Source: a virus
DNA: 52,382 bases
Direction: 5' to 3' (one strand)
IMG/VR virus record: IMGVR_UViG_3300045988_148619
The notes under the pieces were generated by a model that searched no databases, was not told the origin of the DNA, and saw only the letters and a list, made by a program, of their open reading frames with translations. Shown in pieces: positions 824 through 46,238 of the stretch. The position numbers were made by a program, and so were the translations under genes. Position 1 is the stretch's first letter. Each line of letters begins with the position of its first letter.

Positions 824-841
824 TTGAAAGATATTATTCAA
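824..841. repeat. 18-bp palindrome copy (TTGAAW-N6-WTTCAA family)
   Basis: ttgaaagatattattcaa, located between the TMP stop and the Dit RBS. Confidence 0.8.
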
Positions 842-876
842 AAAGGAGCATGGCCACAAAACCACACTCCTAATAA

Positions 877-3492
877 TTAAACAATACCTCTTTTTCTATT
901 TTCTCTGTCTTGTAGAGTTTTAAGCTCTCTAGCTATTCTTTTTATGTCAGCTTCTTCTCTAACTACTAACTCCCCAACATTGATAACAATGTCACCTGAG
1001 CCTGTAGCTGTAGTTGTTGCTGGTGAACCTATCATAGAAGCAACAGCACTGGCAAAAGGTTTCATCCTTCTTTTGTTTGATAAAGGAACAACAGCTTCAT
1101 CACCATTTTCCCCTACCCCTATGACACTTGCACCAGTGAATATACCCCCAGTTTGGTACCAATCTATTCCAAATGAAGGGGCTGATGGTGGATTTAAACT
1201 GAACTTACCACTGATTTTAACATGAGGTAATTTAAGCTTAGGTAATGACCAGCTGAAGTTGAAGGCACTCTTTATTTTATCTATAGTATTCTTAACTACA
1301 GATAAAGCCCCTTCCACCTTTGTCTTAATGGCATTTTTTATATTGTCAAAGATTTTACTTACTGTGTCCTTAGCTTGATTTAACTTAGTGCTGAAGGCAC
1401 TTTTTATAGTATCTAAGACAGAGCTTACCTTATCCTTAGCTTGTTGAATCTTAGAGCTTATTGCTTCATGTATTCTTGAAAATACTTGCTGTGTTATGTC
1501 CCTAGCTTGGTTGAATTTAGAGCTAAAGAAAGATTTTATATTATCTAAGATCCCACCTATGAAACTAGAAACAGCTTGCATTTTACTAGATATGTATTGG
1601 TGGATTGTTGAGAAAACTTGTGATACAAATTCCTTCACAGCTGTAAATTTATCCTTAAAGTAGTTATATACCTTTTCACAGATTTCCCTTACCTTATCAC
1701 CTATCTTGTGCATTACCTCCTGAATCTTAGACCATATTGATTCTAGAATAGGCTGTAGCCAAGATTTACAGTTCTCCCAAATTAATTTCCAAGGCACAAA
1801 TATTGATTCCATACCAAACTTAATTAAGTTGCCTATAAGCTGAAGGGCAACATCCACAACATCACAGATTGTGTCCCATGCTTGTTGGCAAGTATCTTTC
1901 ACTTTTTGCCAGCACTCACCTAGCTTGTCACCCATCTTTGAGAATGTGTCTTGAGTTGACTTTACAAAGTCTTTAAATCCTTCCACTATTCCATCTATGA
2001 TACCTCCAACAGTATCCTTAATGCTGTTCCAAAGATTGATACAGTATTCTTTTATTGCATCCCAGTTTTTATAAATTAATACACCTATACCAGCCAAAAC
2101 TGCTACAACACCAGCTACAGCTAACACTACTGGATTACAACCTGTTAACCCCATAATTGCACCTTTTAATAGTCCAAACATACCTGATATGGATTTAACA
2201 GTTTTAAGAGCTTCTATACCCTTCTTAACACCTTGGAAAGCTGGGATTAATTTACCTAATGCCCCCTTAACACCTATGAAAGTACCTATAGAAGTTCCAA
2301 AGACAGTGATAATATCCCCATACTTCTTCCAAAAACTTTCCAGTGCTGGTAAAAGATTGTTTATACCTTCTGAAAGCTTTTCAATTAAGTCAGACAGAGG
2401 TTCTTCTACCTTAGACCCAATCTTTATGAGTAAACCCTCCCAAGCTGATTCAAGTCCCCTTATAGCCCCACCAAGACCTGATTCCATTGTGTTGGCTGTA
2501 TCTTCAGCAAAGCCACTACAATTATACAGCTCTTCAGTCAGCTTAGGTAAATCATCAGTTGAAGCATTAACAAGTGCCAAGAATCCTGACATTGATTCAG
2601 ACCCAGCTATTTGTTTTGCTGTAGCAACTTGTTGGGTTTCAGATAATCCAGCAAACTTTTCTTTAAGTAAAGGGAGGAATGAGCCTAAGTCTTTACATCC
2701 AGCTTCTACATCAGCAGTAGATAATCCTAATGTTTGGAATCCTTTTGTAACTTCAGCAGTAGGACTTGCCAATCTACTCAGAATATTTTTAAGGGCATTC
2801 CCTCCACTACCAGCCTTAATACCATTATTTGCCATGATACCCAGCATAGCAGAAGCCTGCTCTATGTCCAACCCAAAAGCACTAGCTGTTGCCCCAGCAT
2901 ATTTCATCCCTTCTCCAAGTTGCTGTACATTTGTATTGGCACTTGCCTGAACCTTAGCAAACACATCTGAAGCCCTAGCAGTATCTTCAGCAGTCAGGTT
3001 AAACATTGACATACTATCTGTTAAAATATCTGAAGTGGTTGCTAAATCTAGGGCTGAAGCACTTGATAGTGAAAGTACTCCCCCAACTCCATCCATGATT
3101 TCTTGGCAATTCATTCCACTTAAAGCCATATAACCCATTGCATCAGCAACATCTGAAGCACTGTGGGCTGTAGTTGAACCATACTCAATTGCAACATTTT
3201 TCATTGCATTGAATTCACCCTGTGTTGCACTTGACAGGGCTTTTACACTAAGCATTGAATCAGAGAATGTAGATGTAGTATTAATTACACTCTTACCAAA
3301 TCCAACAACCTTATCTACAGCAAAAGCTGTCCCAATAGCCTTTCCAACCTTACTCAAAGCCCCATCCATAGATGAAGAACTTTTGGAAGTAGTATCAGAC
3401 AGACCTTGAATACTTGACTGAGCCTGTTTTAATCCTTTCTCAAGATTACTAATGTCAGCCTGTAATTTTACAATTACATCATTTGATGCCAT
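877..3492 (-). CDS. Tail tape measure protein
   Basis: 871 aa. ATG follows GGTGGA. The TP901-type core reads [13 protein letters not shown]...[49 protein letters not shown]. There is a central TM-like segment and C-terminal ~25-aa K/S/I-rich repeats. The gene sits after the tail chaperones. Confidence 0.9.
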
Positions 3493-3517
3493 ATTTTTTC
3501 CACCTTTCAGTTTATTT

Positions 3518-3535
3518 TTGAAAATTATTTTTCAA
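3518..3535. repeat. 18-bp palindrome copy (TTGAAW-N6-WTTCAA family)
   Basis: ttgaaaattatttttcaa, between the terminator at 3547-3582 and the TMP RBS. Confidence 0.8.
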
Positions 3536-3546
3536 ATTTGAATAAT

Positions 3547-3582
3547 AAAAAAAGGCTGTCAGGAATATCACCCAACAGCCCC
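3547..3582 (-). terminator. Intrinsic terminator between the tail chaperone and tape measure genes
   Basis: On the minus strand, GGCTGT..(loop)..ACAGCC is followed by TTTTTTT. Confidence 0.6.
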
Positions 3583-3590
3583 TAAAAGAA

Positions 3591-4213
3591 TTATGACAGT
3601 CCAAAAGTTGCCATTAATTCATCTTGTAATTTTTTCTTTTCTTCAGGATCAATTCCCTTAGCCCTAACCTTTTCTTGTTCCCTTTGCTTTTCTAAAGGGA
3701 TGTATAAATCTTCAGGCTTAATTTTCTTTTTATAGTTGCCTGTACTATTCATTAATAAAGCTGTTTGCCATGACAACATAATCATCTGCATATCAAAGGC
3801 TTCTTCCTCAGCCTTAGTATGTGCTAGAACCATATCACACAAGATACTAAGGTCAAGATTATAAACCTCTGAAGGCTTCAGTCCTAATTTGCCATAAGCC
3901 CAGTACTTTATTTCAGAAGTATTAGATAGTCCTAAGATTATTGCAAACCCCCAAAGGCTTGACCTATAGCCTCAGAAACAGCTTGTATATCACCAAAGCC
4001 TATCATTTCACCTACAGCTTCAACTGTTAGGTCTTTGTCCTCATGTATTAGTCCAGCATAGACTAACACTTTTAAAGTTTTCATTGATATATTTTGTGTT
4101 ATCTTGTCTAATGTAGACCCAGTTAAATCCTCTATAATCTCTAAAGAGTTTAAATTATAATGTAAATGTCTTTCTTGACCAGCTAACTCTATTTTTACCA
4201 TGTTCTTTTTCAT
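3591..4213 (-). CDS. Tail assembly chaperone G-T fusion made by a programmed -1 frameshift
   Basis: The -1 frame is open from 3971 down to the stop at 3591 and overlaps the end of ORF 3938..4213. The slippery heptamer G_GGT_TTG lies in the overlap. The gene occupies the canonical position between the major tail and TMP genes. Confidence 0.6.
3938..4213 (-). CDS. Tail assembly chaperone (gpG-like)
   Basis: 91 aa. ATG follows GGGAGA. It lies immediately downstream of the major tail protein gene, with a frameshift partner downstream. Confidence 0.7.
   Translation of the reverse strand: MKKNMVKIELAGQERHLHYNLNSLEIIEDLTGSTLDKITQNISMKTLKVLVYAGLIHEDKDLTVEAVGEMIGFGDIQAVSEAIGQAFGGLQ
3944..3950 (-). 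promoter_or_regulatory. Candidate -1 ribosomal slippery site GGGTTTG
   Basis: The minus strand reads GCC TTT GGG GGT TTG CAA TAA. The heptamer G GGT TTG fits the X XXY YYZ pattern. After slippage the frame reads GGG TTT GCA ATA ATC, continuing into the 3591 frame. Confidence 0.55.
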
Positions 4214-4248
4214 AATTAATTTTCTCCCATCCTTATTTTAAGTTTAAA

Positions 4249-4689
4249 TTATTTGCTCTTTTTAGCTCTCATCTCTGAGTTCTTAGCTCTTTTTAAAGGT
4301 GAAGCCCCCTGTAAAGTTAGTGAGTAAGTAACAGCATCATCTTGTGGAAATTCTTCAGGAAAATCTGTTATAACCACTTTACCTGTGTAAGTATATCCAT
4401 CAGTATCTCCCACTTTTATTTCAACATCTATAGCCTTTCTTTCATCAAAAGCAGTATGTAATTCCTCAAAGCCCTCATCTCCTAAGCAAACAAACCCTTC
4501 ACAGTCTAAAGACCAAGATTTAAGACCCATTATTGATTCAGTCCAACCTTCTGAAGTCTTGTCAGACACATCTATTGTTTCAGCACTTCTTGATAATGAA
4601 GCACCCTTTTGTCCTCCTATTGCTACAAAAGAACCACCATTTTTCTTAATTTTTAATAAAACATCTACACCAGCAATCTTTTTAGCCAT
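4249..4689 (-). CDS. Major tail (tube) protein
   Basis: ATG at 4689 lies 8 nt after AGGTGG; the ORF-track start at 4701 is a GTG inside the RBS. MAKKIAGVDVLLKIKKNGGSFVAIGGQKGASLSRSAETIDVSDKTSEGW matches the TP901-1/phi13-type tail tube pattern. Confidence 0.8.
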   Translation of the reverse strand: MAKKIAGVDVLLKIKKNGGSFVAIGGQKGASLSRSAETIDVSDKTSEGWTESIMGLKSWSLDCEGFVCLGDEGFEELHTAFDERKAIDVEIKVGDTDGYTYTGKVVITDFPEEFPQDDAVTYSLTLQGASPLKRAKNSEMRAKKSK

Positions 4690-4713
4690 GTTTTTATCCA
4701 CCTTTCTTTAAAA

Positions 4714-4731
4714 TTGAAAAGTATCTTTCAA
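4714..4731. repeat. 18-bp palindrome copy (TTGAAW-N6-WTTCAA family)
   Basis: ttgaaaagtatctttcaa. Confidence 0.8.
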
Positions 4732-4748
4732 AAACAGCTACAGTGAAA

Positions 4749-4766
4749 TTGAAAAACACTTTTCAA
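4749..4766. repeat. 18-bp palindrome copy (TTGAAW-N6-WTTCAA family)
   Basis: ttgaaaaacacttttcaa. Confidence 0.8.
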
Positions 4767-8092: not shown

Positions 8093-9088
8093 TTATTTTT
8101 TTCTTTTGACTGCTGTCACACTCTTTAATCCTCTAACCTTTTCATTGTGCCTATCTATGTCCTCTTGTGGTAATAAAGATATATCACCCACTGGGAAAGG
8201 AGAATGAACACACCTAGGATGAAATATAAGCCCTGTAGACTGTAGGCTGTCATATGTAGGGAAGCCTTTGGCTGTACCAGTTAGGGATATCAACATCCCC
8301 TCAAAGTATCTACAGCTATCTTTTGCCCCCTTCTCAGGGATAACAGCCATATCAAAGCCTGTTTCTACTGCTCTATCCTTTAGACCTTCCACATATGCCT
8401 GATTTAGCTTTGTCTTAACAGCCATGTCAACATAATTCTTAGTACTCCATTTCCTTCCTGACTTATCAACCAGCCCTATGAATCCTTTCTTATTTAGAGA
8501 ATCCTTTAGCCCATTTCTTGAAAGTTCTTTTTCAATAATCTTTTTAATCTCTTTCTGATTTTCTTCTTTTAAGGTATGATATTGTAAATTCTTACTGAAC
8601 ACTTCCCTGACAAGCTTCTTCAATTCTTTTGAAGTGTGTTGAGTAGTGAATAGTAAATCATCCATTGTATCCTGTACTATCTGTTCCATTTTAAAGGTGT
8701 TTAAGGTAGAGTAAGGAACAGCACCCTTTAAGGCTTCAATATCCTTTATAGTTTCACTGGCTAAAGCATGAAACAACTTGGCTGTCACATAAGATTCCTC
8801 TAGCTCCTGTTTAACCACCTGAGCCACAACACTGTCCAACTCTGTCATCCTCTTTTCAATTAATTGCATTAAAGCCAAATGTGACTGATAAGAAGGGGAA
8901 GATAATACCCCAAAATTATCAGCTAGTTGACCATGAAGCTCTTTAAATATCTTCTTATATGCTGTTGCATACTTCTTTGATATAGCTTCTGAAGATGTTT
9001 CAATCCTTCTTGCTGGTATATTTTGATTACCCTTTCTATGAAGTTTCATAACCTCAGCCAAAAGCTTATTAAATTCTTTTTCAGTCAT
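8093..9088 (-). CDS. Minor head / head morphogenesis protein (SPP1 gp7-like)
   Basis: 331 aa, directly after the portal gene, with a GGGGAGGA RBS. The C-terminal HPRCVHSPFP motif is typical of this family. Confidence 0.65.
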   Translation of the reverse strand: MTEKEFNKLLAEVMKLHRKGNQNIPARRIETSSEAISKKYATAYKKIFKELHGQLADNFGVLSSPSYQSHLALMQLIEKRMTELDSVVAQVVKQELEESYVTAKLFHALASETIKDIEALKGAVPYSTLNTFKMEQIVQDTMDDLLFTTQHTSKELKKLVREVFSKNLQYHTLKEENQKEIKKIIEKELSRNGLKDSLNKKGFIGLVDKSGRKWSTKNYVDMAVKTKLNQAYVEGLKDRAVETGFDMAVIPEKGAKDSCRYFEGMLISLTGTAKGFPTYDSLQSTGLIFHPRCVHSPFPVGDISLLPQEDIDRHNEKVRGLKSVTAVKRKK

Positions 9089-9108: not shown

Positions 9109-10620
9109 TTATATTTCTACCTCAGCAATTTCTAAATCATTAATATTTGATCCTTCAGGCTCCAACTCATTAAACACTGAAGGGTCAGCTGTTTCTAAAG
9201 CTTCTTCCTCTTCCTGTTTAATTCTTTCAATCTCAAGCTCAGCCTGTTCTTCTGTAAAGTTGTTTAGTATCATTACAGCTGATTTTTGACTTAGTGTCTT
9301 AGCTCCACCAGTTCTGACACTCATTATATTGGCCTGCTCCATTTCATCCTTTGGAAGCCCATCTTGGAAGTGTAGTACTGGAACAGTAATATCATAATCT
9401 GCAATACCTAAAGCTTCTTCAAGCTTCTGAGCTATATAAAATACTTGCTTGATTCCTTTAGAGTAATATTGTTTCTTCCTGTTTATCTTAGCCAGTATAC
9501 TGTTCATTCTCCATTTAATAGCAAGCCCTGAACTTCCTGAAGTCCCTGAATCACCTTTCCCTAAAGCAACAGCTGGTATTTCAGCAACCATTAAGACCAT
9601 ATCAACCAGCCTATCTAATTCAGAAAAGGCTTCATTAAGTTGCCCATTCCAAGTAATATAAGAAGGAACAATGTCATCTTTGCCCATTACCTCAAAGACC
9701 TTATCTACAGCAACTCTAAATTGTGCATTTCCATCTTCATCTGCTGATAAAAGCCCACTTGGTACAGCCATAGCTGGGTTAGAGTGCTTATCTAATATAT
9801 CTGCTATTTGAGTAATCCTATTATTTATTTCATCTAATAATGGGAGAATTTCAGTTAAATCATCAAGACCTTCCCAAGTATCAGCTATGGATAAGTTTGG
9901 AATATGAACAACTAAAGGCATATTTACTCCTGTCATAACTTCATAACTTGCTGATTCATCTATCCCTTGTATAGCCCATCTGTCAGGCTCATTATCCATA
10001 TTGAAGTTTATAGGAGCTATATTATATCTAGAATATACAATCTTTCCAGCATAGTGGCTCTCTACTGTTAGGCTCCACTTATCCTCTTCTTCATCATATA
10101 AAGGAATAGCTATGTGATAACATTTTATTCTATTTTTATCCCATGATACTGTTTCAGGAAAAACATATTCAGGGTTAATATTTTCAATTATCACTTTAGG
10201 TTCATCTAACTCAGGAGGAAGTTCTCCACCATATTCTTGACCATATCTGACTTTAATGAAGCTGTCCCCAGCATAAGCATTAGAGATTGCATTTTCATAA
10301 AGCATTATATTTAGGTGGTTTTCCTCCATAAGCCTGTTAAAAGCTTCTTGCTCCTTTGAGTACTCACCTTTACCAGCCAACACCTTTAATTCCTCTCCAA
10401 AAAGAAAGTCTGCTGACTTCTTGCATATGATACCAGCTAAATTTACTGATACATACAGAAGGTCTTTGTGGCTAGGCAGAAGATTAGAGCTTTTAAATAC
10501 CTCATTGTGTAACCCCTTAAAGACCTTTTTATTCATTCTGTACTGTCTGATTCTTTTGTTGTGTGCTTGTGGTGGGTACAGTTCACCAACAGCAAATAAT
10601 TTTTGACTTTGCATTATCAT
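9109..10620 (-). CDS. Portal protein
   Basis: 503 aa, directly after the large terminase gene. The size and acidic C-terminus fit an SPP1-type portal. Confidence 0.8.
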   Translation of the reverse strand: MIMQSQKLFAVGELYPPQAHNKRIRQYRMNKKVFKGLHNEVFKSSNLLPSHKDLLYVSVNLAGIICKKSADFLFGEELKVLAGKGEYSKEQEAFNRLMEENHLNIMLYENAISNAYAGDSFIKVRYGQEYGGELPPELDEPKVIIENINPEYVFPETVSWDKNRIKCYHIAIPLYDEEEDKWSLTVESHYAGKIVYSRYNIAPINFNMDNEPDRWAIQGIDESASYEVMTGVNMPLVVHIPNLSIADTWEGLDDLTEILPLLDEINNRITQIADILDKHSNPAMAVPSGLLSADEDGNAQFRVAVDKVFEVMGKDDIVPSYITWNGQLNEAFSELDRLVDMVLMVAEIPAVALGKGDSGTSGSSGLAIKWRMNSILAKINRKKQYYSKGIKQVFYIAQKLEEALGIADYDITVPVLHFQDGLPKDEMEQANIMSVRTGGAKTLSQKSAVMILNNFTEEQAELEIERIKQEEEEALETADPSVFNELEPEGSNINDLEIAEVEI

Positions 10621-10651: not shown

Positions 10652-10669
10652 TTGAAAAATACTTTTCAA
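10652..10669. repeat. 18-bp palindrome copy (TTGAAW-N6-WTTCAA family)
   Basis: ttgaaaaatacttttcaa. Confidence 0.8.
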
Positions 10670-10691
10670 AATAGTTACAGCTGTATTCAAA

Positions 10692-10709
10692 TTGAAAAAT
10701 ATTTTTCAA
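10692..10709. repeat. 18-bp palindrome copy (TTGAAW-N6-WTTCAA family)
   Basis: ttgaaaaatatttttcaa, a perfect palindrome. Confidence 0.8.
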
Positions 10710-13108: not shown

Positions 13109-13933
13109 TTATTTAACTCCTATTTTTTTCAAATACCTCCACAGGGTAGTCCTAGACATATTGCATCTTTCTGCTATCTCTGTTGCTGTATATTTGCCTT
13201 CCTTATATAAAGCTAGTGCAAGATCAAAGTTTGCACCATTTTTTAATTTCTTGCCATATTTGACACCCTTGCCTTTTATTTCTTCAGTGATTTGCTTCTG
13301 TTTTAGTGCTTTAAATTCTCCATCTAAATTATGTAAAGCCACCAATCCCTGATATTTAAAGATTGCATATTTTGAAGTACTGTCTATCCATACTTCTCTT
13401 AATGAAAGTACTCTGACCCCTTTTTTATGTAAGCCCACCAGGAACTCTAAAAGATCACTAATGTTATTAACTACATCTATTATCTGATTTAATACCAAAG
13501 TATCTCCATCTTTTAGTTTTGACATTAAGTGTTCATAACCTACTTGCTCAATATCTTTATCAACATAAATGTTTTCACACCCAGCATTCCTCAACTGCTT
13601 CATGACTAATTCCACATCTTGAGTATTAGAGGTTCTTAAATAGCCATATACCTTCCTATTTGTGTGTAAGTCCATTACTCCCTCATCTACAAAGCCACTG
13701 ATTGCCTGTAATCCCTGTATGAAGAAAGGGTATAACATTGGAATGTGGTATTTAATGTAATCATGGTCATATGTTCCATACTCTACAAATTTCTGCTGAG
13801 CAGTCAGGTTCCCAAGGACACAATTTTGAGCTAAGACCTTTAACCCATCTTGCAATGTTTCTACTGATTCCATACCTTCAATGCTTTTACAAGTTTCCTT
13901 CATTTCTTTTAAAACTAAGTTCACATCTTTCAT
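13109..13933 (-). CDS. Resolvase-fold (serine-recombinase-like) HTH protein with degenerate catalytic motifs. It could be a small terminase or a site-specific DNA-binding protein.
   Basis: 274 aa. YGYLRTSNTQD resembles the resolvase Y-x-R-V-S-T-x-x-Q motif. The D-R-x-x-R block is replaced by IIDVVNN. The C-terminal HTH reads YTATEIAERCNMSRTTLWRYLKK. A ~95-aa N-terminal extension is present. It lies two genes upstream of the large terminase gene. Confidence 0.55.
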   Translation of the reverse strand: MKDVNLVLKEMKETCKSIEGMESVETLQDGLKVLAQNCVLGNLTAQQKFVEYGTYDHDYIKYHIPMLYPFFIQGLQAISGFVDEGVMDLHTNRKVYGYLRTSNTQDVELVMKQLRNAGCENIYVDKDIEQVGYEHLMSKLKDGDTLVLNQIIDVVNNISDLLEFLVGLHKKGVRVLSLREVWIDSTSKYAIFKYQGLVALHNLDGEFKALKQKQITEEIKGKGVKYGKKLKNGANFDLALALYKEGKYTATEIAERCNMSRTTLWRYLKKIGVK

Positions 13934-14061
13934 TGTTTAGATTCTCCTATCTGTAAACAGTTGAAATCTTTTACAGGTATTGATTGTACCATTAAACTGT
14001 AAAAGCTACAACTATTATTTTTTCTATATTTTAATTTGTTGTGTTCTCTGTTGCTTCATAG

Positions 14062-14079
14062 TTTGTAACATTTGTAACA
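14062..14079. repeat. Tandem TTTGTAACA x2. Related half-sites occur at 14251-14256, 14264-14269, 14282-14287 and 14444-14451.
   Basis: tttgtaacatttgtaaca. TGTTAC/GTAACA words are clustered within 400 bp of ORF-free DNA. Confidence 0.6.
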
Positions 14080-15478: not shown

Positions 15479-15485
15479 TTAAAAA

Positions 15486-35029: not shown

Positions 35030-35061
35030 CTATAGGTTCAAGCTTAATTCCTGACTGTGAC
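35030..35061 (-). promoter_or_regulatory. Bipartite promoter-like motif copy (GTCACA-N15-TGWAC-CTAWAY)
   Basis: Minus strand GTCACAgtcaggaattaagctTGAACCTATAG, 30 nt upstream of ATG 34999 and preceded by GGGGGTGGGGGAGG. Confidence 0.6.
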
Positions 35062-35082: not shown

Positions 35083-35100
35083 TTGAAAAGTATCTTTCAA
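35083..35100. repeat. 18-bp palindrome copy (TTGAAW-N6-WTTCAA family)
   Basis: ttgaaaagtatctttcaa, between the helicase terminator and the promoter-like motif. Confidence 0.8.
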
Positions 35101-38503: not shown

Positions 38504-38537
38504 TAAAAAAAAGACAGCTTTATTAGGCTGTCTTTTC
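38504..38537. terminator. Bidirectional intrinsic terminator between convergent genes
   Basis: aaaaaaaaGACAGCtttattagGCTGTCtttt. Confidence 0.7.
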
Positions 38538-39311
38538 TGCTTCTCTTTCCATTAGTCTTAATTGGGTATTAGTTTGTATTTTATTTATAAGATATTGCTT
38601 TTTAAATAAAGCATAACCATTTATTATTTTAGTGCTATCTGATTCTACTTCATCATATAAAAGGAAAGTGTGACCAGTGAAGTCCCTTTCTTTATATATT
38701 TGATGATTTATCTTAATCCATTTAGGTCTAGCAAACATCTGACCCTTTTCCTGTTTAAAGTCCAACTGTTTCCCTTCCTTTTTAAACAAGAAATCAATGG
38801 CATACTCTGAGTTCTTAGTTATATGCAATTTATGTGATACTCTATGCTTATAGTCTAAGGCAACTAAATCAATTCCAGCATAGTCCAACTTATCACTCTT
38901 TTTCATAACAAAGTTAGGATATATTTCCCTGATAGAAAGCTCTGTGTGAAGTTCATTTATAAAAGAGATGTAACTCCTTAATAATCTTTGCTTAATGCCC
39001 TTTTCCACTGTTTCTGTCCATTTGAAACACACATTATTTCTAGCCCTCCACACTTCACTGGCATAGCTCTTTTTTACATCTTTCATCTGAAAGGCAATAA
39101 ATTCTTGGGGTGTTGGAATCCTCCCAAGCATTTTATGAGCCTTATCAAAAGTGTGATGGAAGCTCCTACCTAAGACCCTATTATTCTGTTCCATTAATCT
39201 ATAGTTAGGGTCTTTCTGCTCTGCTTTAGTCATTCTTATATTAGGTATTCTGTAAGCCTTCTGTTTCAGTAGAAACTCTAATCTAGTAGTGTTTAGTCTT
39301 TGTAAGTTCAT
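38523..39311 (-). CDS. Hypothetical protein
   Basis: About 262 aa from ATG 39311. The ORF-track TTG at 39329 overlaps the upstream gene. I recognise no family with confidence; AGIDLVALDYK gives only a weak hint of a PD-(D/E)XK motif. Confidence 0.45.
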   Translation of the reverse strand: MNLQRLNTTRLEFLLKQKAYRIPNIRMTKAEQKDPNYRLMEQNNRVLGRSFHHTFDKAHKMLGRIPTPQEFIAFQMKDVKKSYASEVWRARNNVCFKWTETVEKGIKQRLLRSYISFINELHTELSIREIYPNFVMKKSDKLDYAGIDLVALDYKHRVSHKLHITKNSEYAIDFLFKKEGKQLDFKQEKGQMFARPKWIKINHQIYKERDFTGHTFLLYDEVESDSTKIINGYALFKKQYLINKIQTNTQLRLMEREAEKTA

Positions 39312-39318
39312 GCTGTGC

Positions 39319-39651
39319 CTACTTTCCAAGACCTAAGCTTTTAAAGAACTTATCAATTACTCCCTTTACTTCATCTTCAGTCATTTGTTTCCCATGTGAA
39401 TTTGTTTCTAACTCCTTAGCCACTTCAGAAACTTCCTCAGCTAGTTCCTCTAATAAAGAAGATTGTTTTATTAAGAATCCATTGAAAGCTGTTATAACTG
39501 ACTTGTGGGCTTCATATTCAGCCCTAGGCATAAATCCAAACTGATTTATTACTTCTAGTTGTGCCTGTGCTTGTACTAGCTGTGTGAAGCTTTCAGCAGT
39601 CCCTTCTTTCATTTCCTCTATTTGTGATACTAAATCTTTTATCATTTCCAT
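39319..39651 (-). CDS. Hypothetical coiled-coil protein
   Basis: 110 aa, the first gene after promoter-like motif j. Confidence 0.5.
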   Translation of the reverse strand: MEMIKDLVSQIEEMKEGTAESFTQLVQAQAQLEVINQFGFMPRAEYEAHKSVITAFNGFLIKQSSLLEELAEEVSEVAKELETNSHGKQMTEDEVKGVIDKFFKSLGLGK

Positions 39652-39714: not shown

Positions 39715-39781
39715 ACTTTTTATTTATTTTTTTTAATCTTTTTTTTGGAAGCAATTTTTGAAAAGTAGTATTCAGTGGTTT

Positions 39782-39799
39782 TTGAAAAATATCTTTCAA
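39782..39799. repeat. 18-bp palindrome copy (TTGAAW-N6-WTTCAA family)
   Basis: ttgaaaaatatctttcaa. A degenerate second copy, ttgaaaagtagtattcag, lies at 39758-39775. Confidence 0.8.
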
Positions 39800-39810: not shown

Positions 39811-39838
39811 AAAAAAAAGACACTGATTACTCAGTGCC
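39811..39838 (-). terminator. Intrinsic terminator overlapping the parR-like stop codon
   Basis: Minus strand GGCACTGA gtaa TCAGTGTC, followed by TTTTTTTTT. Confidence 0.7.
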
Positions 39839-40186
39839 TTGTTCATTTCTTTTACTCATTATTCCTTGAATCTTCATTTTATTAGCCTTGGGTTTTGGTG
39901 GCTCAGCTGGTTCAGTAGTTACTGCTGTTTCATTAGTCCCAGCACCTTGTTGACTTTGGATTAGTTTTATTAGGGCTTCTATATCTAGCCCTGTTGGATT
40001 TGTATTTAGTTGTGACATGGCTGTGGGCTGTGGCCTTCTACCAGCCATATCATCTCTGATTAATTGCTTAACATAATTTGAAAAACTCCCCTGACTATCA
40101 GCCCACTCAATTAGGTCTAGTTCATTATCCATGAAAGATACATTAATTATGTATCTTCCATCTTTTCTAGGCTTTCTAATCTTCAT
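39827..40186 (-). CDS. parR: ParR-like centromere-binding protein (ribbon-helix-helix-like N-terminus)
   Basis: ATG at 40186 lies 6 nt after GAGG. GRYIINVSFMDNELDLIEWADSQGSFSNYVKQLIRDDM has a beta-helix-helix pattern. The gene follows the ParM-like gene. Confidence 0.5.
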   Translation of the reverse strand: MKIRKPRKDGRYIINVSFMDNELDLIEWADSQGSFSNYVKQLIRDDMAGRRPQPTAMSQLNTNPTGLDIEALIKLIQSQQGAGTNETAVTTEPAEPPKPKANKMKIQGIMSKRNEQGTE

Positions 40187-41090
40187 ATAATGCCTCTGCA
40201 ACAGCTTGATAAACTTCTTGGTTTATATATTGGCTGTTTTCTATTAATTCAGCTTTTGGGAAGTGTTTCTTCCAGTATTTAAAGGTATTAATAGCACCCC
40301 CACCAAATACTTGGATAGCATCAGCACCTACATAGTCAATGTTTTTAGTGAATGATATTAAATCATATACTAAACCATCAAAGGCACTGTCCACTTCTTT
40401 CTCAACACTTACTTGACCAGTTTTTGTGTTCATAACTGGGTTGCTGACATATCTTTCAACATCAGGTGGATTTAAATGTGTTTTATGTTTTTCATTAATC
40501 AGCTGTGTTAGGTCAGTGTACACTTTATTCATAGAACCATTATTTGTATAATGATTAGCTATTTCTTGCTCTCTCCACTCTATGATATTTATTGTACCCA
40601 TGCCCACATCTATAGTAATTATATGTCTATCATCATTATCCCTAATTGGCAATGCTCCTTCTATAAATACTTTCATATTCTTAAAATCTATTATGTAATG
40701 CTTACCATCAACAGTGATTTCTTCAACTCCTAAGCCATTTAAATAGGCTTCAACATCATCAGCTTGGTTATTGTAGTGGTCTACAGGTATTCCCACAACT
40801 AGATTAGCCTCTAATGGATTTTTTGCCACTGGTGTAGCTAAAGCTGTAGCTGTTAGAAGTGCTATTTTATATTCCTCTGTAAAGTATCTATCTTCTGAAA
40901 TGAATGAATGGCCTTCACCTACTACATAAGAAGCTCCTTTATATATTACCTCATGAACCTCAGCTTTGTGCTTTATGTTGTAGCCATTTGCCTTTTGAAG
41001 TGTTCCCTGTCTTATCTTTGAAGCAAATCTGTTTCCTACTCCATACTTACAGTACCCATTTCCAATATCAAGTCCTTTTTTAATAATCAT
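40176..41090 (-). CDS. parM: ParM/StbA-type actin-like plasmid segregation ATPase
   Basis: 304 aa. The N-terminal phosphate-1 motif reads KGLDIGNGYCKYG. Internal motifs are ITIDVGMGTINI and VFGGGAI. Confidence 0.7.
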   Translation of the reverse strand: MIIKKGLDIGNGYCKYGVGNRFASKIRQGTLQKANGYNIKHKAEVHEVIYKGASYVVGEGHSFISEDRYFTEEYKIALLTATALATPVAKNPLEANLVVGIPVDHYNNQADDVEAYLNGLGVEEITVDGKHYIIDFKNMKVFIEGALPIRDNDDRHIITIDVGMGTINIIEWREQEIANHYTNNGSMNKVYTDLTQLINEKHKTHLNPPDVERYVSNPVMNTKTGQVSVEKEVDSAFDGLVYDLISFTKNIDYVGADAIQVFGGGAINTFKYWKKHFPKAELIENSQYINQEVYQAVAEALYED

Positions 41091-41214
41091 AATAAATTAC
41101 CTCTCTTTTCTTTATTCAATTTTATCTGTTTTGTGTTTTGATTTTTTGTTTTGTCAGTGGCTTGTCCCCCTGACACTATTTATATTATCACATACCCAAA
41201 ATTAATGCAATACT

Positions 41215-41430
41215 TTTTTATAGAAATTTATATATTTTTACATAAATTTATAGATTTTTATAGATTTTTCTATACAAGATTAGTGATTGCAATGGCTACA
41301 CATTTCTATAAATTTATAGATTTTTATAGATATTTATGTATTTTTCTATAAATTTTATATAAATTTCTATAAATAATACAGCTAATCCATTTCTATAAAT
41401 TTCTATACTTTTATATATTTTTCTATAAAA
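41215..41430. repeat. parC-like centromere: at least 10 copies of TTCTATAAA / TTTATAGAW in both orientations, upstream of the parM-like gene
   Basis: ttctataaa occurs at 41304, 41344, 41365, 41391 and 41421. ttctatac occurs at 41268 and 41401. Inverted tttatagat/tatagaaa copies lie at 41217-41330. Confidence 0.65.
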
Positions 41431-41495: not shown

Positions 41496-42281
41496 CTAGC
41501 CCAATATACTGTCAAAAGCTGAATAATCATCTTCTAAATACTGTGCTGTAAGGTCTGCTAAAGCTTCTTTCTTAGCTTCTGCTTCCTGTTCTTGCTTCAT
41601 TTGTTGAAGTACATTGTTCCCTAACCAGCCACATAGCATAGGTATTGTAGGATATGGGAAGTTTGCACTGCTCCATTTAACCCTATAGTTCTTAATTGCA
41701 TATTCAATCATTGATAATATTGTTTCATCATCAAAGTTTGCCATTAATTTATTTTTGATCAGTGATAAGTCCCTTGCATATTTCACTAAATATTTAATCC
41801 CATATTCTTCTTCATACATGGAACAGAACTTACCAGCATAATCTTTGGCTGTTCTTTTCTTAGGTTCTTGGACATCCTCCTGTTCCACTGATAAATCACT
41901 TGTGCTGTTTTCTGTTTTCTCAACATTTAATTTATATACTGAAAACTTCTTTCTTCCACCAGCCTGTTCTAAGTCCCTAGCAAGGACTGGAACACCATTT
42001 ATTTTGGTAGTCAGAAGCTTATTAACTAGCTTATTTACTGTTGGCAATGAATACCCTGTAAGCTCTGCAAGTTTCCTTTGACTTGGGAAAGCTTCCCCTT
42101 CCCTGTCCATATATGAAGCTATGGCTAACAAGATTATAAATTCACCAGCCCCAATCTCTTTCAGAATACCTTGCTGTATTGCATGAATGTCTAGCTTAAT
42201 GCTTCTATCTTCAACATAAGATTGGTTTATAACATCATACTGTTGAATTAGCTCCACCTGTAAAAAAGAATTATTGTTCAT
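41496..42281 (-). CDS. Winged-HTH protein, a possible replication-origin-binding or organiser protein
   Basis: 261 aa with a GGTGGTGG RBS. FPSQRKLAELTGYSLPTVNKLVNKLL is a wHTH of the kind found in phage replication initiators. Confidence 0.45.
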   Translation of the reverse strand: MNNNSFLQVELIQQYDVINQSYVEDRSIKLDIHAIQQGILKEIGAGEFIILLAIASYMDREGEAFPSQRKLAELTGYSLPTVNKLVNKLLTTKINGVPVLARDLEQAGGRKKFSVYKLNVEKTENSTSDLSVEQEDVQEPKKRTAKDYAGKFCSMYEEEYGIKYLVKYARDLSLIKNKLMANFDDETILSMIEYAIKNYRVKWSSANFPYPTIPMLCGWLGNNVLQQMKQEQEAEAKKEALADLTAQYLEDDYSAFDSILG

Positions 42282-42939: not shown

Positions 42940-42982
42940 TAGTTTTTAAAAATAGTTTTTAATAGTTTTTATATAGTTTTTA
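42940..42982. repeat. Four phased TAGTTTTTA repeats 10-13 bp apart, an AT-rich bent or unwinding element next to the iterons
   Basis: tagtttttaaaaatagtttttaatagtttttatatagttttta. Confidence 0.6.
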
Positions 42983-43024
42983 GGGGTACCCAAAACCCAG
43001 TATTTCCAATATGTTGCTGAATTG

Positions 43025-43150
43025 AAATATGACAAAAACATAATGAAATATGACAAAAACATAATGAACTATGACATTTGCATAATGAAATATGACAAAA
43101 ACATAATGAACTATGACAAAAACATAATGAACTATGACAAAAACATAATG
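43025..43150 (+). repeat. Six tandem 21-bp iterons
   Basis: (a)aaTATGACAaaaaCATAATG repeated six times with no spacers. One copy has tttg in place of aaaa. Confidence 0.9.
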
Positions 43151-43280
43151 CCTGTGGACAAGTCTGTGCATAACCCTGTGGATAGTGCTGTGAACAACTC
43201 ATACAACCATTGAAAATATTAGGATTCAGAAAAAGGCATTTTGCTGTTAATTTTATCAAAATAGGGTCAAATAGCTATCT

Positions 43281-43367
43281 AAATATGACATTTGCATAAT
43301 GAACTATGACACTGATTATGTTTTTGTCATATTTTAATTATGACTGATTATGTTTTTGTCATATTTA
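43281..43367. repeat. Additional iteron copies abutting the rep promoter: one direct, one partial and two inverted
   Basis: The direct copy aaatatgacatttgcataatg is at 43281-43301. The inverted copies gattatgtttttgtcatatt are at 43314-43335 and 43346-43367. Confidence 0.8.
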
Positions 43368-44517: not shown

Positions 44518-45477
44518 TTATAGTCCCAAAATTTTAGACCATGCTTTCAGATCCCACACACCAGTGGCTTCTAGACCATTATTTGTTTGATATATTTTTA
44601 CTGCTGATTCCATACCAGCACCAAAAGAACCATCAACACCTTTGCAGTCTAAATTATATACAACAGTAAGATGTTCCTGTAGTAACCTTACTACCTCACC
44701 AGTAGAACCCTTTTTAAGTTCAGGACAAGCTTCTGCTGTGTTTTTAGAGTACCCTAAAATATTACAAGCTGTTTGTAGCCTAGCCACCCAACCATTGTAT
44801 TGGTTAGGTATTACTTTAGAACCTTTTACAGCTTCACAGTAAGCCATAGACACATAGCCTGTGACTTTATTGTATGTAACCTTGCCCCAACCAGCAGACA
44901 CTTCAGAAATGTCTATAACTGTGTTATGTGGTAAGTTGCCAAGTATGTTGAAAGCTGTACTTTTACCAGCCCTGATGTTTAAACCATCTTCAGCTGTTAT
45001 TTTATAAACCCCTTTAGAAGTAGATGGGGCTGTTGCAGTGCCTTTAGTTATTTCATCAAAAGGAAAATTCTTACCAGGGCAGTCTGTATTTGCATAATCT
45101 CTGTGTTTAGCAAACTTAGTGATTTTGTGATACTCTCTGATATACTTACACAGCTGTTTCCCAGCTTCTATTTGAGCCTGTGGCATTGTGTTGTCTTGAA
45201 GATTACCCTCAAAGCACACACCAATAGAAACCCTGTTCTTGCCCTGTGCAGAACAATGACAACCAACTGCTGTAGTAGGTCTACCTTTGTATACTGTACC
45301 ATCTTTTCTTACATAATAATTATATCCAATTCCACCCCAACCTTTTGATTTGTGAAACTCATGTATAGCTTCAACTGTTCCATTGCCTGAAGCATGGTGT
45401 AAAATACATTCAACTGGTTTATTAGTGTGTTTTAATCCAGTAAAGACTAAACCAGTATCAATAATTTTAATAGTCAT
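44518..45477 (-). CDS. Endolysin: N-acetylmuramoyl-L-alanine amidase (Amidase_2/PGRP) + SH3b + PG_binding_1
   Basis: ATG at 45477 follows GAAAGGGGG. The amidase signature reads ILHHASG...GIGYNYYV...CPG. The SH3b-like segment reads VYKITAEDGLNIRAGKS...GWGKVTYNKVTGYVSM. The C-terminal segment GSTGEVVRLLQEHL...DGSFGAGMESAVKIYQTNNGL fits a PG-binding domain. Confidence 0.85.
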   Translation of the reverse strand: MTIKIIDTGLVFTGLKHTNKPVECILHHASGNGTVEAIHEFHKSKGWGGIGYNYYVRKDGTVYKGRPTTAVGCHCSAQGKNRVSIGVCFEGNLQDNTMPQAQIEAGKQLCKYIREYHKITKFAKHRDYANTDCPGKNFPFDEITKGTATAPSTSKGVYKITAEDGLNIRAGKSTAFNILGNLPHNTVIDISEVSAGWGKVTYNKVTGYVSMAYCEAVKGSKVIPNQYNGWVARLQTACNILGYSKNTAEACPELKKGSTGEVVRLLQEHLTVVYNLDCKGVDGSFGAGMESAVKIYQTNNGLEATGVWDLKAWSKILGL

Positions 45478-45544
45478 AATATGACCCCCTTTCACTATTT
45501 ACACAAACTACTGTAAACAAACAATATTAAAAACAAGCTTATTA

Positions 45545-45562
45545 TTGAAAAATACTTTTCAA
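45545..45562. repeat. 18-bp palindrome copy (TTGAAW-N6-WTTCAA family)
   Basis: ttgaaaaatacttttcaa. Confidence 0.8.
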
Positions 45563-45584
45563 AATAGCTTCAGCTGTACTCAAA

Positions 45585-45602
45585 TTGAAAAATACTTTTC
45601 AA
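45585..45602. repeat. 18-bp palindrome copy (TTGAAW-N6-WTTCAA family)
   Basis: ttgaaaaatacttttcaa. Confidence 0.8.
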
Positions 45603-45624
45603 TAAAACTGGTAAAATGGGCATA

Positions 45625-45750
45625 AAAAAAAACAGCCCCCAACCAAAAGGACTGTTTTTCTGAATAACCAAAACCCAAAACAGATGGTACTGTATCAATA
45701 CCCTGTATTGAGTGCCTAATGGCTCAACCAATAGCCATTAAACAAATATT
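45625..45750 (-). ncRNA. Candidate ~125-nt small RNA or attenuator leader between the holin and endolysin genes
   Basis: It is bounded by a sigmaA-type promoter (45757-45785) and an intrinsic terminator (CAGTCC..GGGCTG plus T9, 45624-45654). It contains no ORF. Internal hairpins are AATGGCT..AGCCATT and CAATAC-agg-GTATTG. Confidence 0.3.
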
Positions 45751-45756
45751 AAATAT

Positions 45757-45785
45757 ATTATATCATAGTGTTTGTGTATGGTCAA
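45757..45785 (-). promoter_or_regulatory. SigmaA-type promoter downstream of the holin stop codon
   Basis: Minus strand TTGACC (45785..45780), a 17-nt spacer, then TATAAT (45762..45757). Confidence 0.6.
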
Positions 45786-45803
45786 TACTTTAATTTAATT
45801 TAA

Positions 45804-46238
45804 TTATTTTTGAAAAGTATCTTTCAATTCAGAAGGGGATGTTTCATCAGCTATATCATGGAGTTTAGCTAATCTTTCTCTAATCACTTCGGGTATAGGA
45901 ACCCCTACAGCCCCAAGATTCTCTATGATAGAAGATCCTTCAATAGAAATGTAGAATATAGTAACCACAGTCCTTATTACTGGGTCTGTGTTGCCCATAA
46001 GAGTGTCTAGCTGGAAACACAGTATTAAAATTAGGATATACCCAGCTTTAGTAACTAATCCTTCTCTGAATTGTTTGGAAGTAAAGGCAAACCCATGTAA
46101 GCCTTTGAATACCCCTGTAAGAATATCTATAGCAATTAATATTAATAAAACCTGAAGAGTGAAGTCCCAGCCCCCAATTAAGGCTGAAACAACTCCTATA
46201 ATAATACCTGTGATGTTTTCAAAACTTTGTTCTAACAT
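45804..46238 (-). CDS. Holin (phage_holin_4_1 / TcdE-like family)
   Basis: ATG at 46238 follows TAGGAGGG. It has three TM-like segments. IGGWDFTLQVLLILIAIDILTGVFKG...FTSKQFREGLVTKAGYILIL fits this holin family. Confidence 0.8.
   Translation of the reverse strand: MLEQSFENITGIIIGVVSALIGGWDFTLQVLLILIAIDILTGVFKGLHGFAFTSKQFREGLVTKAGYILILILCFQLDTLMGNTDPVIRTVVTIFYISIEGSSIIENLGAVGVPIPEVIRERLAKLHDIADETSPSELKDTFQK
45810..45827. repeat. 18-bp palindrome copy (TTGAAW-N6-WTTCAA family), inside the holin 3' end
   Basis: ttgaaaagtatctttcaa, which encodes ...KDTFQK. Confidence 0.75.

Follow-up and report, generated by a model that had tools for sequence, protein, structure and literature searches.

The window analysed here, a stretch of 52,382 nucleotides that looks like a complete, circularly permuted phage-plasmid of Clostridium type, carries copies of an 18-bp palindrome positioned at the boundaries of its lytic transcription units. 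Our preferred reading, which we hold tentatively, is that this palindrome would be a double-stranded operator for one dimeric phage-encoded regulator and would mark these boundaries, the likeliest binder being the XRE-family protein encoded at 22201-22599. Such a regulator would be global and is probably a repressing or insulating one. Whether it represses or activates is something that we infer, and the phasing between palindrome and -35 suits an activator as well as a repressor.

The motif TTGAA-N8-TTCAA has 21 strict matches in the window while 0.29 +/- 0.48 are expected (mean over 100 dinucleotide-preserving shuffles, largest value 2). An earlier note on this DNA, which proposed this comparison, had listed 19 positions and estimated that less than one match would occur by chance; all 19 match the motif, the estimate holds and the enrichment is clear. 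The two matches missing from its list, 8518 and 49886, both lie within coding sequence. Scanning with the fuller consensus TTGAAAARTAYTTTTCAA, allowing up to three mismatches, gives 25 matches for 0.87 expected and adds degenerate copies at 17667, 36996, 39758, 42945 and 46336. The two perfect palindromes that had been claimed are those at 10692 and 19110, both TTGAAAAATATTTTTCAA. Fifteen of the 21 strict copies are fully intergenic in a window that is 85.5% coding (binomial, ~5e-9), and copies are present in the early as well as the late half, as previously described. Neither the strict nor the degenerate scan found any copy next to the promoters of + strand genes, rep, parM or the XRE gene.

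Comparison with relatives indicates that the 18-mer itself is maintained. Two close relatives have 21 strict copies each. Between the window and relative 158547, palindromes are identical at 245 of 252 positions (97%) whereas their 40-nt flanks are identical at 944 of 1127 (84%). Sites fixed while the adjacent intergenic DNA diverges are the mark of purifying selection on the 18-mer. Relatives carry either the same site or a variant centred on ATTAAT. The motif is also enriched in pCPC216_2 (9 matches, 0.33 expected) and in a C. perfringens contig (8 matches, 0.18 expected), and many unrelated elements, phages and satellites of Gram-positive bacteria, have close variants. By contrast, it is entirely absent from FA67 and from the relatives that are close by their helicase (L116-L137).

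The copies typically start 15-19 nt past the stem of an intrinsic terminator. In 24 of 35 cases from the window clade and pCPC216_2, and in 17 of 35 from unrelated elements, 12-20 nt (mostly 15-19) separate the stem end from the palindrome, for about 15% expected under a uniform spread over 0-60 nt. The palindrome is followed either by a sigmaA-type early promoter or by the RBS of a late gene. Spacings to the -35 hexamer fall into two groups that differ by roughly one turn of the helix, 5-7 bp (9 cases) and 17 bp (7 cases). Most copies had been placed after a terminator and before the following gene: the intergenic part of this description stands, but a terminator-like hairpin ending within 19 nt upstream was detected for 7 copies, and the terminator of copy 23581 is downstream of the palindrome. 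Only about half of the strong terminators of the window have a palindrome.

Many copies precede late genes. Starting 2 nt past a terminator hairpin (871-844), the copy at 824-841 stops 16 nt short of the start codon of a tail gene wrapping round the window end. That at 3518-3535, 15 nt past terminator 3583-3551, is upstream of the RBS of an 871-aa tape-measure-like gene (877-3492). Others are paired: 4714-4731 and 4749-4766 (35 bp start to start, spacer containing CAGCTG) upstream of the tail-tube-like gene 4249-4701; 10652-10669 and 10692-10709 (40 bp apart, spacer tttgaatacagctgtaactatt) past the terminator following TerL and upstream of the portal gene 9109-10620; and 45545-45562 with 45585-45602 (spacer tttgagtacagctgaagctatt, 40 bp apart), which precede the endolysin gene 44518-45495. 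Two further copies, 16400-16417 and 16470-16487, 70 bp apart, lie in non-coding DNA ahead of the TerS-like gene 15486-15872 and are conserved while their flanks diverge (58/80 and 48/82). In the same way, the copy at 15001-15018 is kept at 18/18 in relative 158547 with flanks at 63/81; the 1.5-kb non-coding stretch that includes it separates the TerS-like gene from a recombinase. The copy at 45810-45827, within the last codons of the holin gene (TIGR01593, 1.2e-23) and 24 bp upstream of TTGACC-17-TATAAT, is also conserved at 18/18 (flanks 56/80).

On the minus strand, the perfect palindrome 19110-19127 is 18 nt past a terminator stem and is followed by aaaagtg, TTGCAA, 17 bp and TATTAT, the early sigmaA-type promoter (locus 19074-19127) of a SprT-like gene (17724-19031); this layout recurs in pCPC216_2 at 53825. 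The copy at 23581-23598 overlaps the DNA polymerase stop codon, its terminator lying 11 nt downstream, followed by a GTCACA-N16-GAACC motif. This second motif is also found 12 nt downstream of copy 31477-31494 (19 nt past a terminator stem, ahead of a PD-(D/E)XK nuclease gene) and downstream of copy 35083-35100 (16 nt past the terminator following the helicase gene, ahead of the primase gene). Finally, the copy at 39782-39799, adjoined by a degenerate one with 3 mismatches (39758-39775), is 17 nt past the terminator ending the parM/parR-like operon, a position that we count in favour of the operator reading.

Some copies lie inside genes. Three had been placed at or in gene 3' ends; this is true for the polymerase and holin copies, whereas the third (30296-30313, peptide LKDIFQ) is in the body of RuvC. 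As close relatives do not keep it as a motif (14/18), it is probably a by-product of the coding sequence. The matches 8518-8535, in a minor-capsid/head-morphogenesis gene (3 mismatches to the full consensus), and 49886-49903, in a tail gene (peptide ELKDKIQ, poor inner sequence), are probably non-functional. The copy at 28465-28482, within a small coiled-coil ORF of about 45 aa (peptide ...ELKDIIQ...), is kept in relatives, including L265, and is uncertain as a functional site.

The earlier note proposed that the palindrome is the operator of one global phage regulator. A symmetric, conserved site at lytic-unit boundaries agrees with this proposal, and the part concerning the XRE protein (HTH_26; 22201-22599, + strand; recognition helix GLRLATISELMNGKK) rests on helix covariation. 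This protein appears the best candidate binder because, from one relative to another, its recognition helix and the centre of the palindrome change together: helices of type ...TIS[ED]... go with ARTAY centres (window, 158547, 142024, L265, L266, L271, L272, L273/L274) and helices of type ...TIND... with ATTAAT centres (pCPC216_2, L275, 2663763443), while FA67, devoid of the motif, has a truncated and divergent XRE. One or two evolutionary events (shared ancestry) may be all that lies behind this covariation. Several observations weigh against the XRE protein. No palindrome copy is found at its own promoter or at the adjacent divergent one, which is unusual for an autoregulated repressor. Homologues on host chromosomes whose recognition helix is nearly the same lack any palindrome within 12-15 kb. 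Furthermore, no XRE or region-4-like homologue was detected in many of the unrelated IMG/VR phages and small integrase-bearing elements in which the ATTAAT-type site is multi-copy. The XRE gene is divergently oriented with respect to the lytic genes of the window.

The second candidate is a small HTH protein related to sigma-70 region 4 and YlxM (21034-21369, minus strand), a possible ArpU/RinA-like activator whose helix also differs between the two motif types. The HTH protein encoded at 15486-15872, previously suggested as a regulator, is unlikely to be one, as it is a terminase-small-subunit-like HTH (PF13022, 1e-31). ParR and Rep were excluded as binders because each has its own repeats; the ParM/ParR system has centromere-like 10-bp repeats at 41200-41430.

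Comparable systems are known. In Cluster A mycobacteriophages, the stoperators bound by the immunity repressor (gp71 of L5) are present in more than 20 copies genome-wide, in promoter regions and short intergenic spaces of early and late operons, and were proposed to stop both initiation and elongation (PMC9283540). They are asymmetric 13-mers bound by a monomer, whose orientation strictly follows the direction of transcription (PMC9283540). The window shares with them the many dispersed copies of one short site in early and late units, but its site, an 18-bp palindrome, is used in either orientation and lies at a constant ~17 nt past intrinsic terminators, with a putative binder, in a phage-plasmid of low-GC Firmicutes. 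The C1 repressor of P1 controls many operators scattered over a phage-plasmid genome, as the single candidate regulator would here; however, these operators are asymmetric 17-mers overlapping promoters and not palindromes. In phiC31, one repressor acts at many scattered conserved inverted repeats, which like the present sites are often between a terminator and the next gene. To our knowledge, neither a fixed terminator spacing nor two phased promoter spacings have been described for P1 or phiC31. KorB and KorA of IncP plasmids have palindromic operators dispersed round a mobile replicon, some just upstream of -35 and others far from promoters; KorB is a ParB-family protein, whereas the element studied here has ParM/ParR with its own repeats and no ParB-like protein was seen in it. 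Sites of the phi29 p4 or class I CAP type are, as here, inverted repeats upstream of -35, bound by a dimer on one helix face, and can switch on promoters that are weak or, through alpha-CTD contacts, repress those that are strong; they occur once or twice per genome and are not coupled to terminators or intercistronic positions, unlike the approximately twenty terminator-coupled copies of the window.

The same phasing could instead reveal an activator site, from which a phage regulator such as the region-4/YlxM-like protein (RinA/ArpU-type) would recruit the host RNA polymerase through alpha-CTD or sigma contacts and switch on the units behind each terminator. This is unlikely. Spacings of 5-7 and ~17 bp put the palindrome centre near -51.5 or -61.5, typical of contacts dependent on the helix face, and the half-sites TTGAAA/TTGAAT resemble the -35 hexamer, which we would infer to be the target of a region-4 HTH. 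Moreover, each of the four pairs of copies is located ahead of a late module (terS-like, portal, tail tube, endolysin), and the region-4-like gene, which ends the replication module, is kept in every relative of the window that has the motif. However, the promoters adjacent to palindromes are near-consensus (TTGACA-17-TATAAT with an UP-like element, AAAAAAGTG) and so should not need an activator. Start codons at late sites are just 16-33 nt past the palindrome, too close for a promoter to fit downstream of a -51/-61 site. The motif is missing from FA67, which does have a region-4-like homologue, and unrelated motif-rich elements lack the protein.

It is improbable that the binder is a host regulator conserved in Firmicutes, for example a chromosomal XRE homologue, whose site was adopted by many phages, phage-plasmids and satellites to tie their transcription to the host state. 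Near-identical 18-mers (TTGAAWATTAATWTTCAA) are indeed multi-copy in unrelated elements having no regulator in common with the window, and chromosomal XRE homologues have a recognition helix almost identical to that of the phage. Nevertheless, no palindromes lie within 12-15 kb of these homologues, FA67 and L116-L137 are devoid of the motif, and both centre types occur among C. perfringens elements, tracking the XRE type of the element itself, which argues against a host factor there.

Spread by recombination of mobile cassettes, the palindrome being the junction between terminator and promoter modules and its conservation due to copying, seems quite improbable too. Promoter/stem-loop cassettes of T4 have been proposed to spread in this way within and between phage genomes. 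The ten pCPC216_2 copies, identical at 18/18 including the asymmetric position and present in both orientations (6 and 4), would fit such copying, as would the perfectly identical copies of unrelated elements and the flanks that some copies of the window have in common (on the upstream side, ttttgttgYYtaaa; at three loci, a paired module of 58 bp). Yet terminator stems and downstream sequences vary between copies, indicating that whole cassettes are not being copied; the selection acting on the 18-mer amid diverging DNA and the covariation of its centre with the regulator also speak against it, and no dedicated recombinase is common to the elements.

There is very little chance that a phage sigma factor or a phage-modified RNA polymerase uses the palindrome as its promoter, despite the position directly past terminators and ahead of late-gene RBSs with no visible sigmaA promoter, despite the TAnnnT in the centre and despite the divergent sigma-like protein that the phage encodes at 33015-33710. 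A site used in both orientations carries no direction, some copies sit upstream of complete sigmaA promoters and no phage RNA polymerase was found. The sigma-like protein already has a better candidate promoter in GTCACA-N16-GAACC (12 matches for 1.2 expected, 11 on the minus strand, that of the genes).

The least credible reading, raised in part earlier and now largely refuted, is an A/U-rich RNA hairpin acting just upstream of the RBS in mRNA processing, stabilisation, antitermination or translational control: many copies do lie 0-25 nt upstream of a Shine-Dalgarno within operons (in the window and especially in a 97-kb IMG/VR phage and small islands), but predicted stabilities are marginal (-0.7 to -2.8 kcal/mol, -0.7 for the pCPC216_2 variant), mirrored positions 7/12 form 25 Watson-Crick pairs for 33.7 expected under independence (A7/C12 20 times, G7/C12 once) with no compensatory changes, identical 18-mers point either way with respect to transcription, the window has no Rfam match, and many copies lie between a terminator and -35, so that the adjacent promoter does not transcribe them and only read-through would. 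By these features the copies behave as double-stranded protein-binding sites.

Returning to the operator reading, in the plasmid (lysogenic) state the bound protein would repress early promoters by occupying the UP-element/alpha-CTD region beside -35. It could also be a roadblock halting RNA polymerase at or close to the U-tract of the terminator before it, and each lytic unit would thus be sealed against read-through from units such as the parMR operon, which is needed constitutively. The system may therefore be a palindromic, terminator-coupled analogue of the C1 operators of P1 or of the mycobacteriophage stoperators.

The 18-bp palindrome TTGAA-N8-TTCAA is a selected, symmetric DNA site that lies at the boundaries of lytic transcription units, about 17 nt after terminators, and appears to be phased with early promoters. 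Its presence in the window is real and non-random: there are 21 strict matches, while the mean over 100 dinucleotide-preserving shuffles is 0.29 +/- 0.48 and no shuffle exceeds 2. All 19 start positions listed in the earlier note were recovered on re-scanning, and the two copies that it described as perfect palindromes are those at 10692 and 19110. The two additional strict matches (8518 and 49886) are both located within coding sequences. The fuller consensus TTGAAAARTAYTTTTCAA, with at most 3 mismatches, has 25 matches against 0.87 expected and adds degenerate copies at 17667, 36996, 39758, 42945 and 46336. Fifteen of the 21 strict copies are fully intergenic in a window that is 85.5% coding, and copies are found in both genome halves. 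This layout, with many copies in short intergenic regions of early and late genes, is that of the L5-like dispersed repressor sites. In the coding copies 28465, 30296, 45810 and 49886, the palindrome is always read in one frame (TTG AAA GAT ...), as (E)LKD(I/T/K)(I/F)Q; the one in RuvC (30296) reappears as a peptide motif in the related loci L273 and L276, so codon usage can generate strict matches.

Nearly all genes of the window are carried by the minus strand. Pfam and NCBIfam scans identified replication genes (family-A DNA polymerase, primase, DnaB-like helicase, DnaA-like ATPase), a dNK, a nucleoside transporter and RuvC, together with a divergent sigma-like protein (33015-33710), a sigma region-4/YlxM-like protein (21034-21369) and an XRE protein (22201-22599) encoded on the strand opposite to most genes. 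Virion and lysis genes include a TerS-like HTH gene, head and tail genes, a holin and an amidase, and one ORF is homologous (71% identity) to the annotated large terminase of the C. perfringens plasmid pCPC216_2. The same scans recognised a serine recombinase, a Rep3 initiator and a ParM-like actin that is accompanied by a small RHH protein; an HTH_36 protein is encoded at 41496-42281. A tail gene spans the window ends, which suggests a circularly permuted phage-plasmid present in full length. Of the annotated relatives, pCPC216_2 and Clostridium phage FA67 come nearest; polymerase identity is 63% for the former and about 50% for the latter. Elements that combine a rep gene with phage structural genes, the 'phage-like' plasmids, are a recognised but little-studied family in C. 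perfringens (PMC10210947).

Several other features of the window deserve mention. About 12 repeats with a 10-bp period (TTTATAGAWW), partly inverted, lie directly upstream of the ParM-like gene (41200-41430); this array is the predicted parC-type centromere on which the RHH protein (39827-40201) would act. The plasmid origin is likely formed by six tandem 21-bp iterons (TGAAATATGACAAAAACATAA; 43002-43150) and two inverted copies upstream of the Rep3 gene, the whole spanning 43002-43366; the ORF listed at 42969-43259 within them is probably spurious. There are no genes in 1.5 kb of low-GC sequence downstream of the TerS-like gene (13934-15485); this stretch, with stacked terminators, G-runs and C-runs (ccccccatcacccccagcccccc near 14960-14985), could contain a packaging site or encode a non-coding RNA; Rfam and tRNA scans of this stretch were negative. 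A nucleoside-salvage module, in which a concentrative nucleoside transporter adjoins deoxynucleoside kinase and thymidine kinase homologues (26263-27432, 27755-28420, 28554-29096), is kept in the relatives L265 and L266. The protein encoded at 38523-39329 has no Pfam match and is 42% identical to an annotated TaqI-family restriction endonuclease of pCPC216_2, and 29448-29999 gives a weak N6-methylase-like signal.

In gene orientation, the usual order is a stop codon, a terminator hairpin with its T-run, a short A/T-rich stretch and the palindrome. The latter is followed by the RBS of late genes (copies 824, 3518, 4714 and 10652), by a GTCACA-N16-GAACC motif (23581, 31477, 35083 and 39782) or by a sigmaA-type promoter (19110 and 45810). 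The distances from stem end to palindrome start, obtained with a simple terminator finder, are 17, 16, 19, 18, 13, 15 and 2 nt in the window, 17, 16 and 19 nt in pCPC216_2 and 12-19 nt in other relatives. A distance of 12-20 nt, expected in about 15% of cases if distances were uniform over 0-60 nt, was found for 24/35 in the window clade pooled with pCPC216_2 and for 17/35 in unrelated motif-bearing elements. For most intergenic copies, the downstream start codon lies anywhere from about 12 to 130 nt from the palindrome. The tight first distance and the variable second one indicate that the palindrome is placed relative to the terminator, not to the following gene.

Where a strong sigmaA promoter follows, the spacing between the palindrome and the -35 is mostly 5-7 bp (n=9) or 17 bp (n=7), one helical turn apart; spacings of 9, 13, 15, 20 and 24 bp are also seen. 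These promoters match TTGACA/TATAAT at 10-12 of 12 positions. Most window copies have no sigmaA promoter downstream, and none adjoins the promoters of rep, parM, the XRE gene or the plus-strand genes. Paired copies, 35-70 bp apart, occur four times, each time ahead of a late module (terS-like, portal, tail tube, endolysin), and three of the four pairs share a CAGCTG-containing spacer. The conserved spacers (4732-4748, 10670-10691 and 45563-45584; tttgaRtaCAGCTGwaRctatt) hold a dyad, TACAGCTGTA, that could be the site of a second factor.

The promoters themselves show further regularities. The early sigmaA promoters of the window clade (window 19074-19102; L265, L266 and L271-L274; pCPC216_2 3445-3480) share the arrangement TTGCAA/TTGACA nnn TGTTTCAA ... 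TATAAT; a half-site in this spacer, TTTCAA, is separated from the right arm of the palindrome by about 2 or 3 helical turns. The GTCACA-N16-G(A/T)ACC motif has 12 matches against 1.2 expected. Eleven of them are on the gene (minus) strand, all in the replication/early-middle region (21960-42354; e.g., 23504-23530, 31438-31464, 35035-35061), and 4 of these 11 have a palindrome and a terminator just upstream; the motif is probably the promoter recognised by the divergent sigma-like protein (33015-33710).

A dimeric regulator would bind the palindrome, and the role that we favour is repression and insulation in the plasmid-prophage state. Four arguments lead to this preference: the adjacent promoters, being close to consensus, should require silencing and not assistance; there is no space for a promoter downstream of the late copies; the promoters needed in lysogeny are devoid of sites; and one copy seals the end of the parMR operon. 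With its edge about 17 nt past the stem, a bound protein would be encountered by the front of RNA polymerase once the active site has moved roughly 3-8 nt beyond the stem and is on the U-tract, an estimate based on typical footprint sizes; such a roadblock could raise termination efficiency. The main competing explanation is that the bound protein acts as an activator, as the phasing between palindromes and promoters, the paired sites ahead of late modules and the -35-like half-sites could suggest. However, class I CAP-like sites would be expected to accompany weak promoter cores, and the cores adjacent to the palindromes are strong.

The earlier note had proposed either the operator of a global regulator or an RNA hairpin; of the two, the operator has the best support, and the hairpin is not supported. 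The predicted folding of the 18-mers as RNA reaches only -0.7 to -2.8 kcal/mol. Among 59 non-coding copies of the type found in the window (ARTAY centre), pooled from the window and its relatives, the two outer arms (positions 1-5 and 14-18) never vary, and the inner mirrored positions show no pairing-preserving covariation: Watson-Crick pairs at positions 7/12 number 25, fewer than the 33.7 that independence predicts, and A/C combinations occur 20 times and G/C once. The 18-mer and its reverse complement are both present in gene orientation. In pCPC216_2, ten copies are identical at all 18 positions, 6 of them in one orientation and 4 in the other. Many copies are located between a terminator and a -35 and would therefore be transcribed only by read-through, and Rfam has no match in the window. 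Taken together, these data favour recognition of duplex DNA by a symmetric dimer over a structured RNA element, whose stem would be unstable and lacks compensatory changes.

A proximal-UP-like element, AAAAAAGTG, abuts the -35 and is separate from the palindrome; the palindrome itself is not an UP element (alpha-CTD site), considering its dyad symmetry, its invariant G3 and C16 and the lack of a sigmaA promoter downstream of most window copies. It is neither a parC centromere nor a set of Rep iterons, as the palindromes are dispersed and these functions have separate arrays (41200-41430 and 43002-43150). A restriction or Type I target site would be expected to be depleted in a phage, while the palindrome is enriched and intergenic. 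The known boxes of Rex, ArgR, CodY, Fur/PerR, parS and ComK do not appear to match it in spacing or sequence.

Comparison of related elements shows that the sites are maintained. Two IMG/VR contigs whose polymerases are 94-98% identical to that of the window each carry 21 strict copies. Against the more distant of them, the intergenic palindromes are identical at 245/252 positions and their 40-nt flanks at 944/1127; for copy 45545, 18/18 positions are kept and only 37/80 in the flanks. The coding copy in RuvC decays to 14/18 in the comparison with these contigs. More distant relatives were reached through XRE homologues. L265, L266, L271 and L272 contain 3-7 window-type copies per 10-20 kb in the same terminator-palindrome-promoter order, and L273 and L274, which come from C. 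perfringens assemblies, contain 8 and 7 window-type copies, respectively. A variant with an ATTAAT centre, TTGAAWATTAATWTTCAA, is found in pCPC216_2, L275 and the contig 2663763443. FA67 and about twenty relatives defined by their helicase have no such dispersed palindrome; some of them carry local clusters of other repeats.

The XRE protein is the leading candidate for the binder. The HTH of its family is nearly invariant (FKLADRM.ER.LTVRKL..LSGLRLATIS[ED]LMNGKK), and the S/N change in its helix tracks the centre of the palindrome: ...TIS[ED]... is paired with ARTAY in every lineage of the window type, among them L273 and L274 of C. perfringens, and ...TIND... with ATTAAT in pCPC216_2, L275 and 2663763443, while FA67, which has no motif, encodes a truncated XRE protein with ...TVSE.... 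Elements of a single host species contain both centre types, which for this clade speaks against a host factor. An 18-bp dyad with invariant TTGAA/TTCAA arms and an HTH protein covarying in the same element is what an XRE/Cro-CI operator would look like; however, such operators are expected at the promoter of their own regulator, and the palindrome is absent from 21974-22200 and from the corresponding regions in five relatives. The association may rest on few independent events, and the helix of the region-4-like protein, the second candidate, also differs between the two centre types. Host-chromosome homologues of the XRE protein (L268, L269 and L270, Logan contigs; 42-45% identity) have an almost identical recognition helix and adjoin polC/ispG/rseP/dxr or lie near a BTAD-domain gene; no TTGAA-N8-TTCAA occurs within 12-15 kb of them.

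Three other proteins of the window were rejected as binders. The ParR-like RHH protein (39827-40201) was attractive at first, as its N-terminus shares 77% identity with the pCPC216_2 protein and is different in L116, which lacks the motif. It is, however, already served by the typical 10-bp repeat array upstream of parM, and the motif-bearing contig 2663763443 has no ParM/ParR in the regions examined. In the same way, Rep3 has its own 21-bp iterons. For the serine recombinase (13109-13933), considered in view of hix-like half-sites, about 20 dispersed recombination sites are implausible and nothing supports them.

A scan of IMG/VR with the ATTAAT variant reveals, among the matches listed, many-copy carriers unrelated to the window. 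For example, L250 contains 11 copies in 12 kb against 0.13 expected, a 97.5-kb contig at least 22 and a 52-kb contig at least 13; several 14-18-kb contigs, some of them isolate-derived with integrase, portal and capsid genes, are also carriers. In some of these elements, nearly every copy lies 5-7 bp upstream of TTGACA-17-TATAAT; in others, the copies separate a stop codon from the Shine-Dalgarno sequence that follows. The perfect palindrome TTGAATATTAATATTCAA and its one-base variants are present in many copies in unrelated elements (L250, L249, L226, L164-L257 on contig 3300025292_000002, L161/L172/L191/L248, L185, L183, L196 and L155). Some are 6ec/GR1-like siphophage contigs with tandem early promoters, and others are 14-18-kb elements with integrase, portal and protease-capsid genes that resemble capsid-forming satellites. 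The first 50 kb of Geobacillus phage GR1, which is related to the motif-rich contigs, are free of copies, and BLAST of the palindrome-plus--35 cassette against GenBank phages gave chance matches only. No homologue of the XRE or region-4-like protein was found in the DNA examined of the unrelated motif-rich elements. BLASTP clustering, HMM searches and jackhmmer (seeds: XRE, region-4-like, ParR-like, DUF5659-like and HTH_17-like proteins) found no regulator common to all carriers; the only shared proteins that these searches recovered from motif-bearing elements are SprT-like, tail, DNA polymerase, TK, PQ-loop, primase, lysin/holin-like and ParM-like.

The P1 C1 operators, the conserved inverted repeats of phiC31 and the IncP KorB operators share with the palindrome a dispersed, genome-wide layout. 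So do the L5-type stoperators (PMC9283540), and these four are the closest known systems. As far as is known, the palindrome is set apart by its symmetry, its orientation independence, its fixed distance to terminators and its two classes of promoter spacing one helical turn apart, as well as by its recurrence, nearly unchanged, in elements unrelated to one another. L5-like stoperators, in particular, are asymmetric and oriented with transcription, whereas the site described here is palindromic and found in both orientations. Full-text literature searches for the exact 18-mers retrieved no description.

It is conceivable, although we consider it unlikely, that this site is a terminator-coupled 'insulator' operator used as a common currency by unrelated Firmicute mobile elements, namely phage-plasmids, about 95-kb 6ec-like siphophages and 15-18-kb islands with integrase, portal and capsid genes. 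The bound dimer would stall RNA polymerase about 17 nt upstream, on the U-tract, making termination protein-switchable, and the regulator of one element or a conserved host XRE homologue could control the others. If so, cross-control would reach helpers, satellites and competitors.

The main interest of the palindrome lies in its coupling to terminators and its unexpectedly wide distribution. To our knowledge, phage operators dispersed over a whole genome have been well documented in few systems only (P1, L5-like mycobacteriophages and phiC31). A counterpart in clostridial phage-plasmids, palindromic and anchored to terminators, would bring this principle to low-GC Gram-positives, including C. 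perfringens elements, and would offer a concrete, testable case of protein-assisted or protein-switchable intrinsic termination. In practice, the site provides a handle for annotating transcription units and early promoters and for engineering these genomes. The near-identical 18-mers of unrelated phages and capsid-gene islands suggest a possible cross-regulation between these elements, such as heteroimmunity or helper-satellite signalling.
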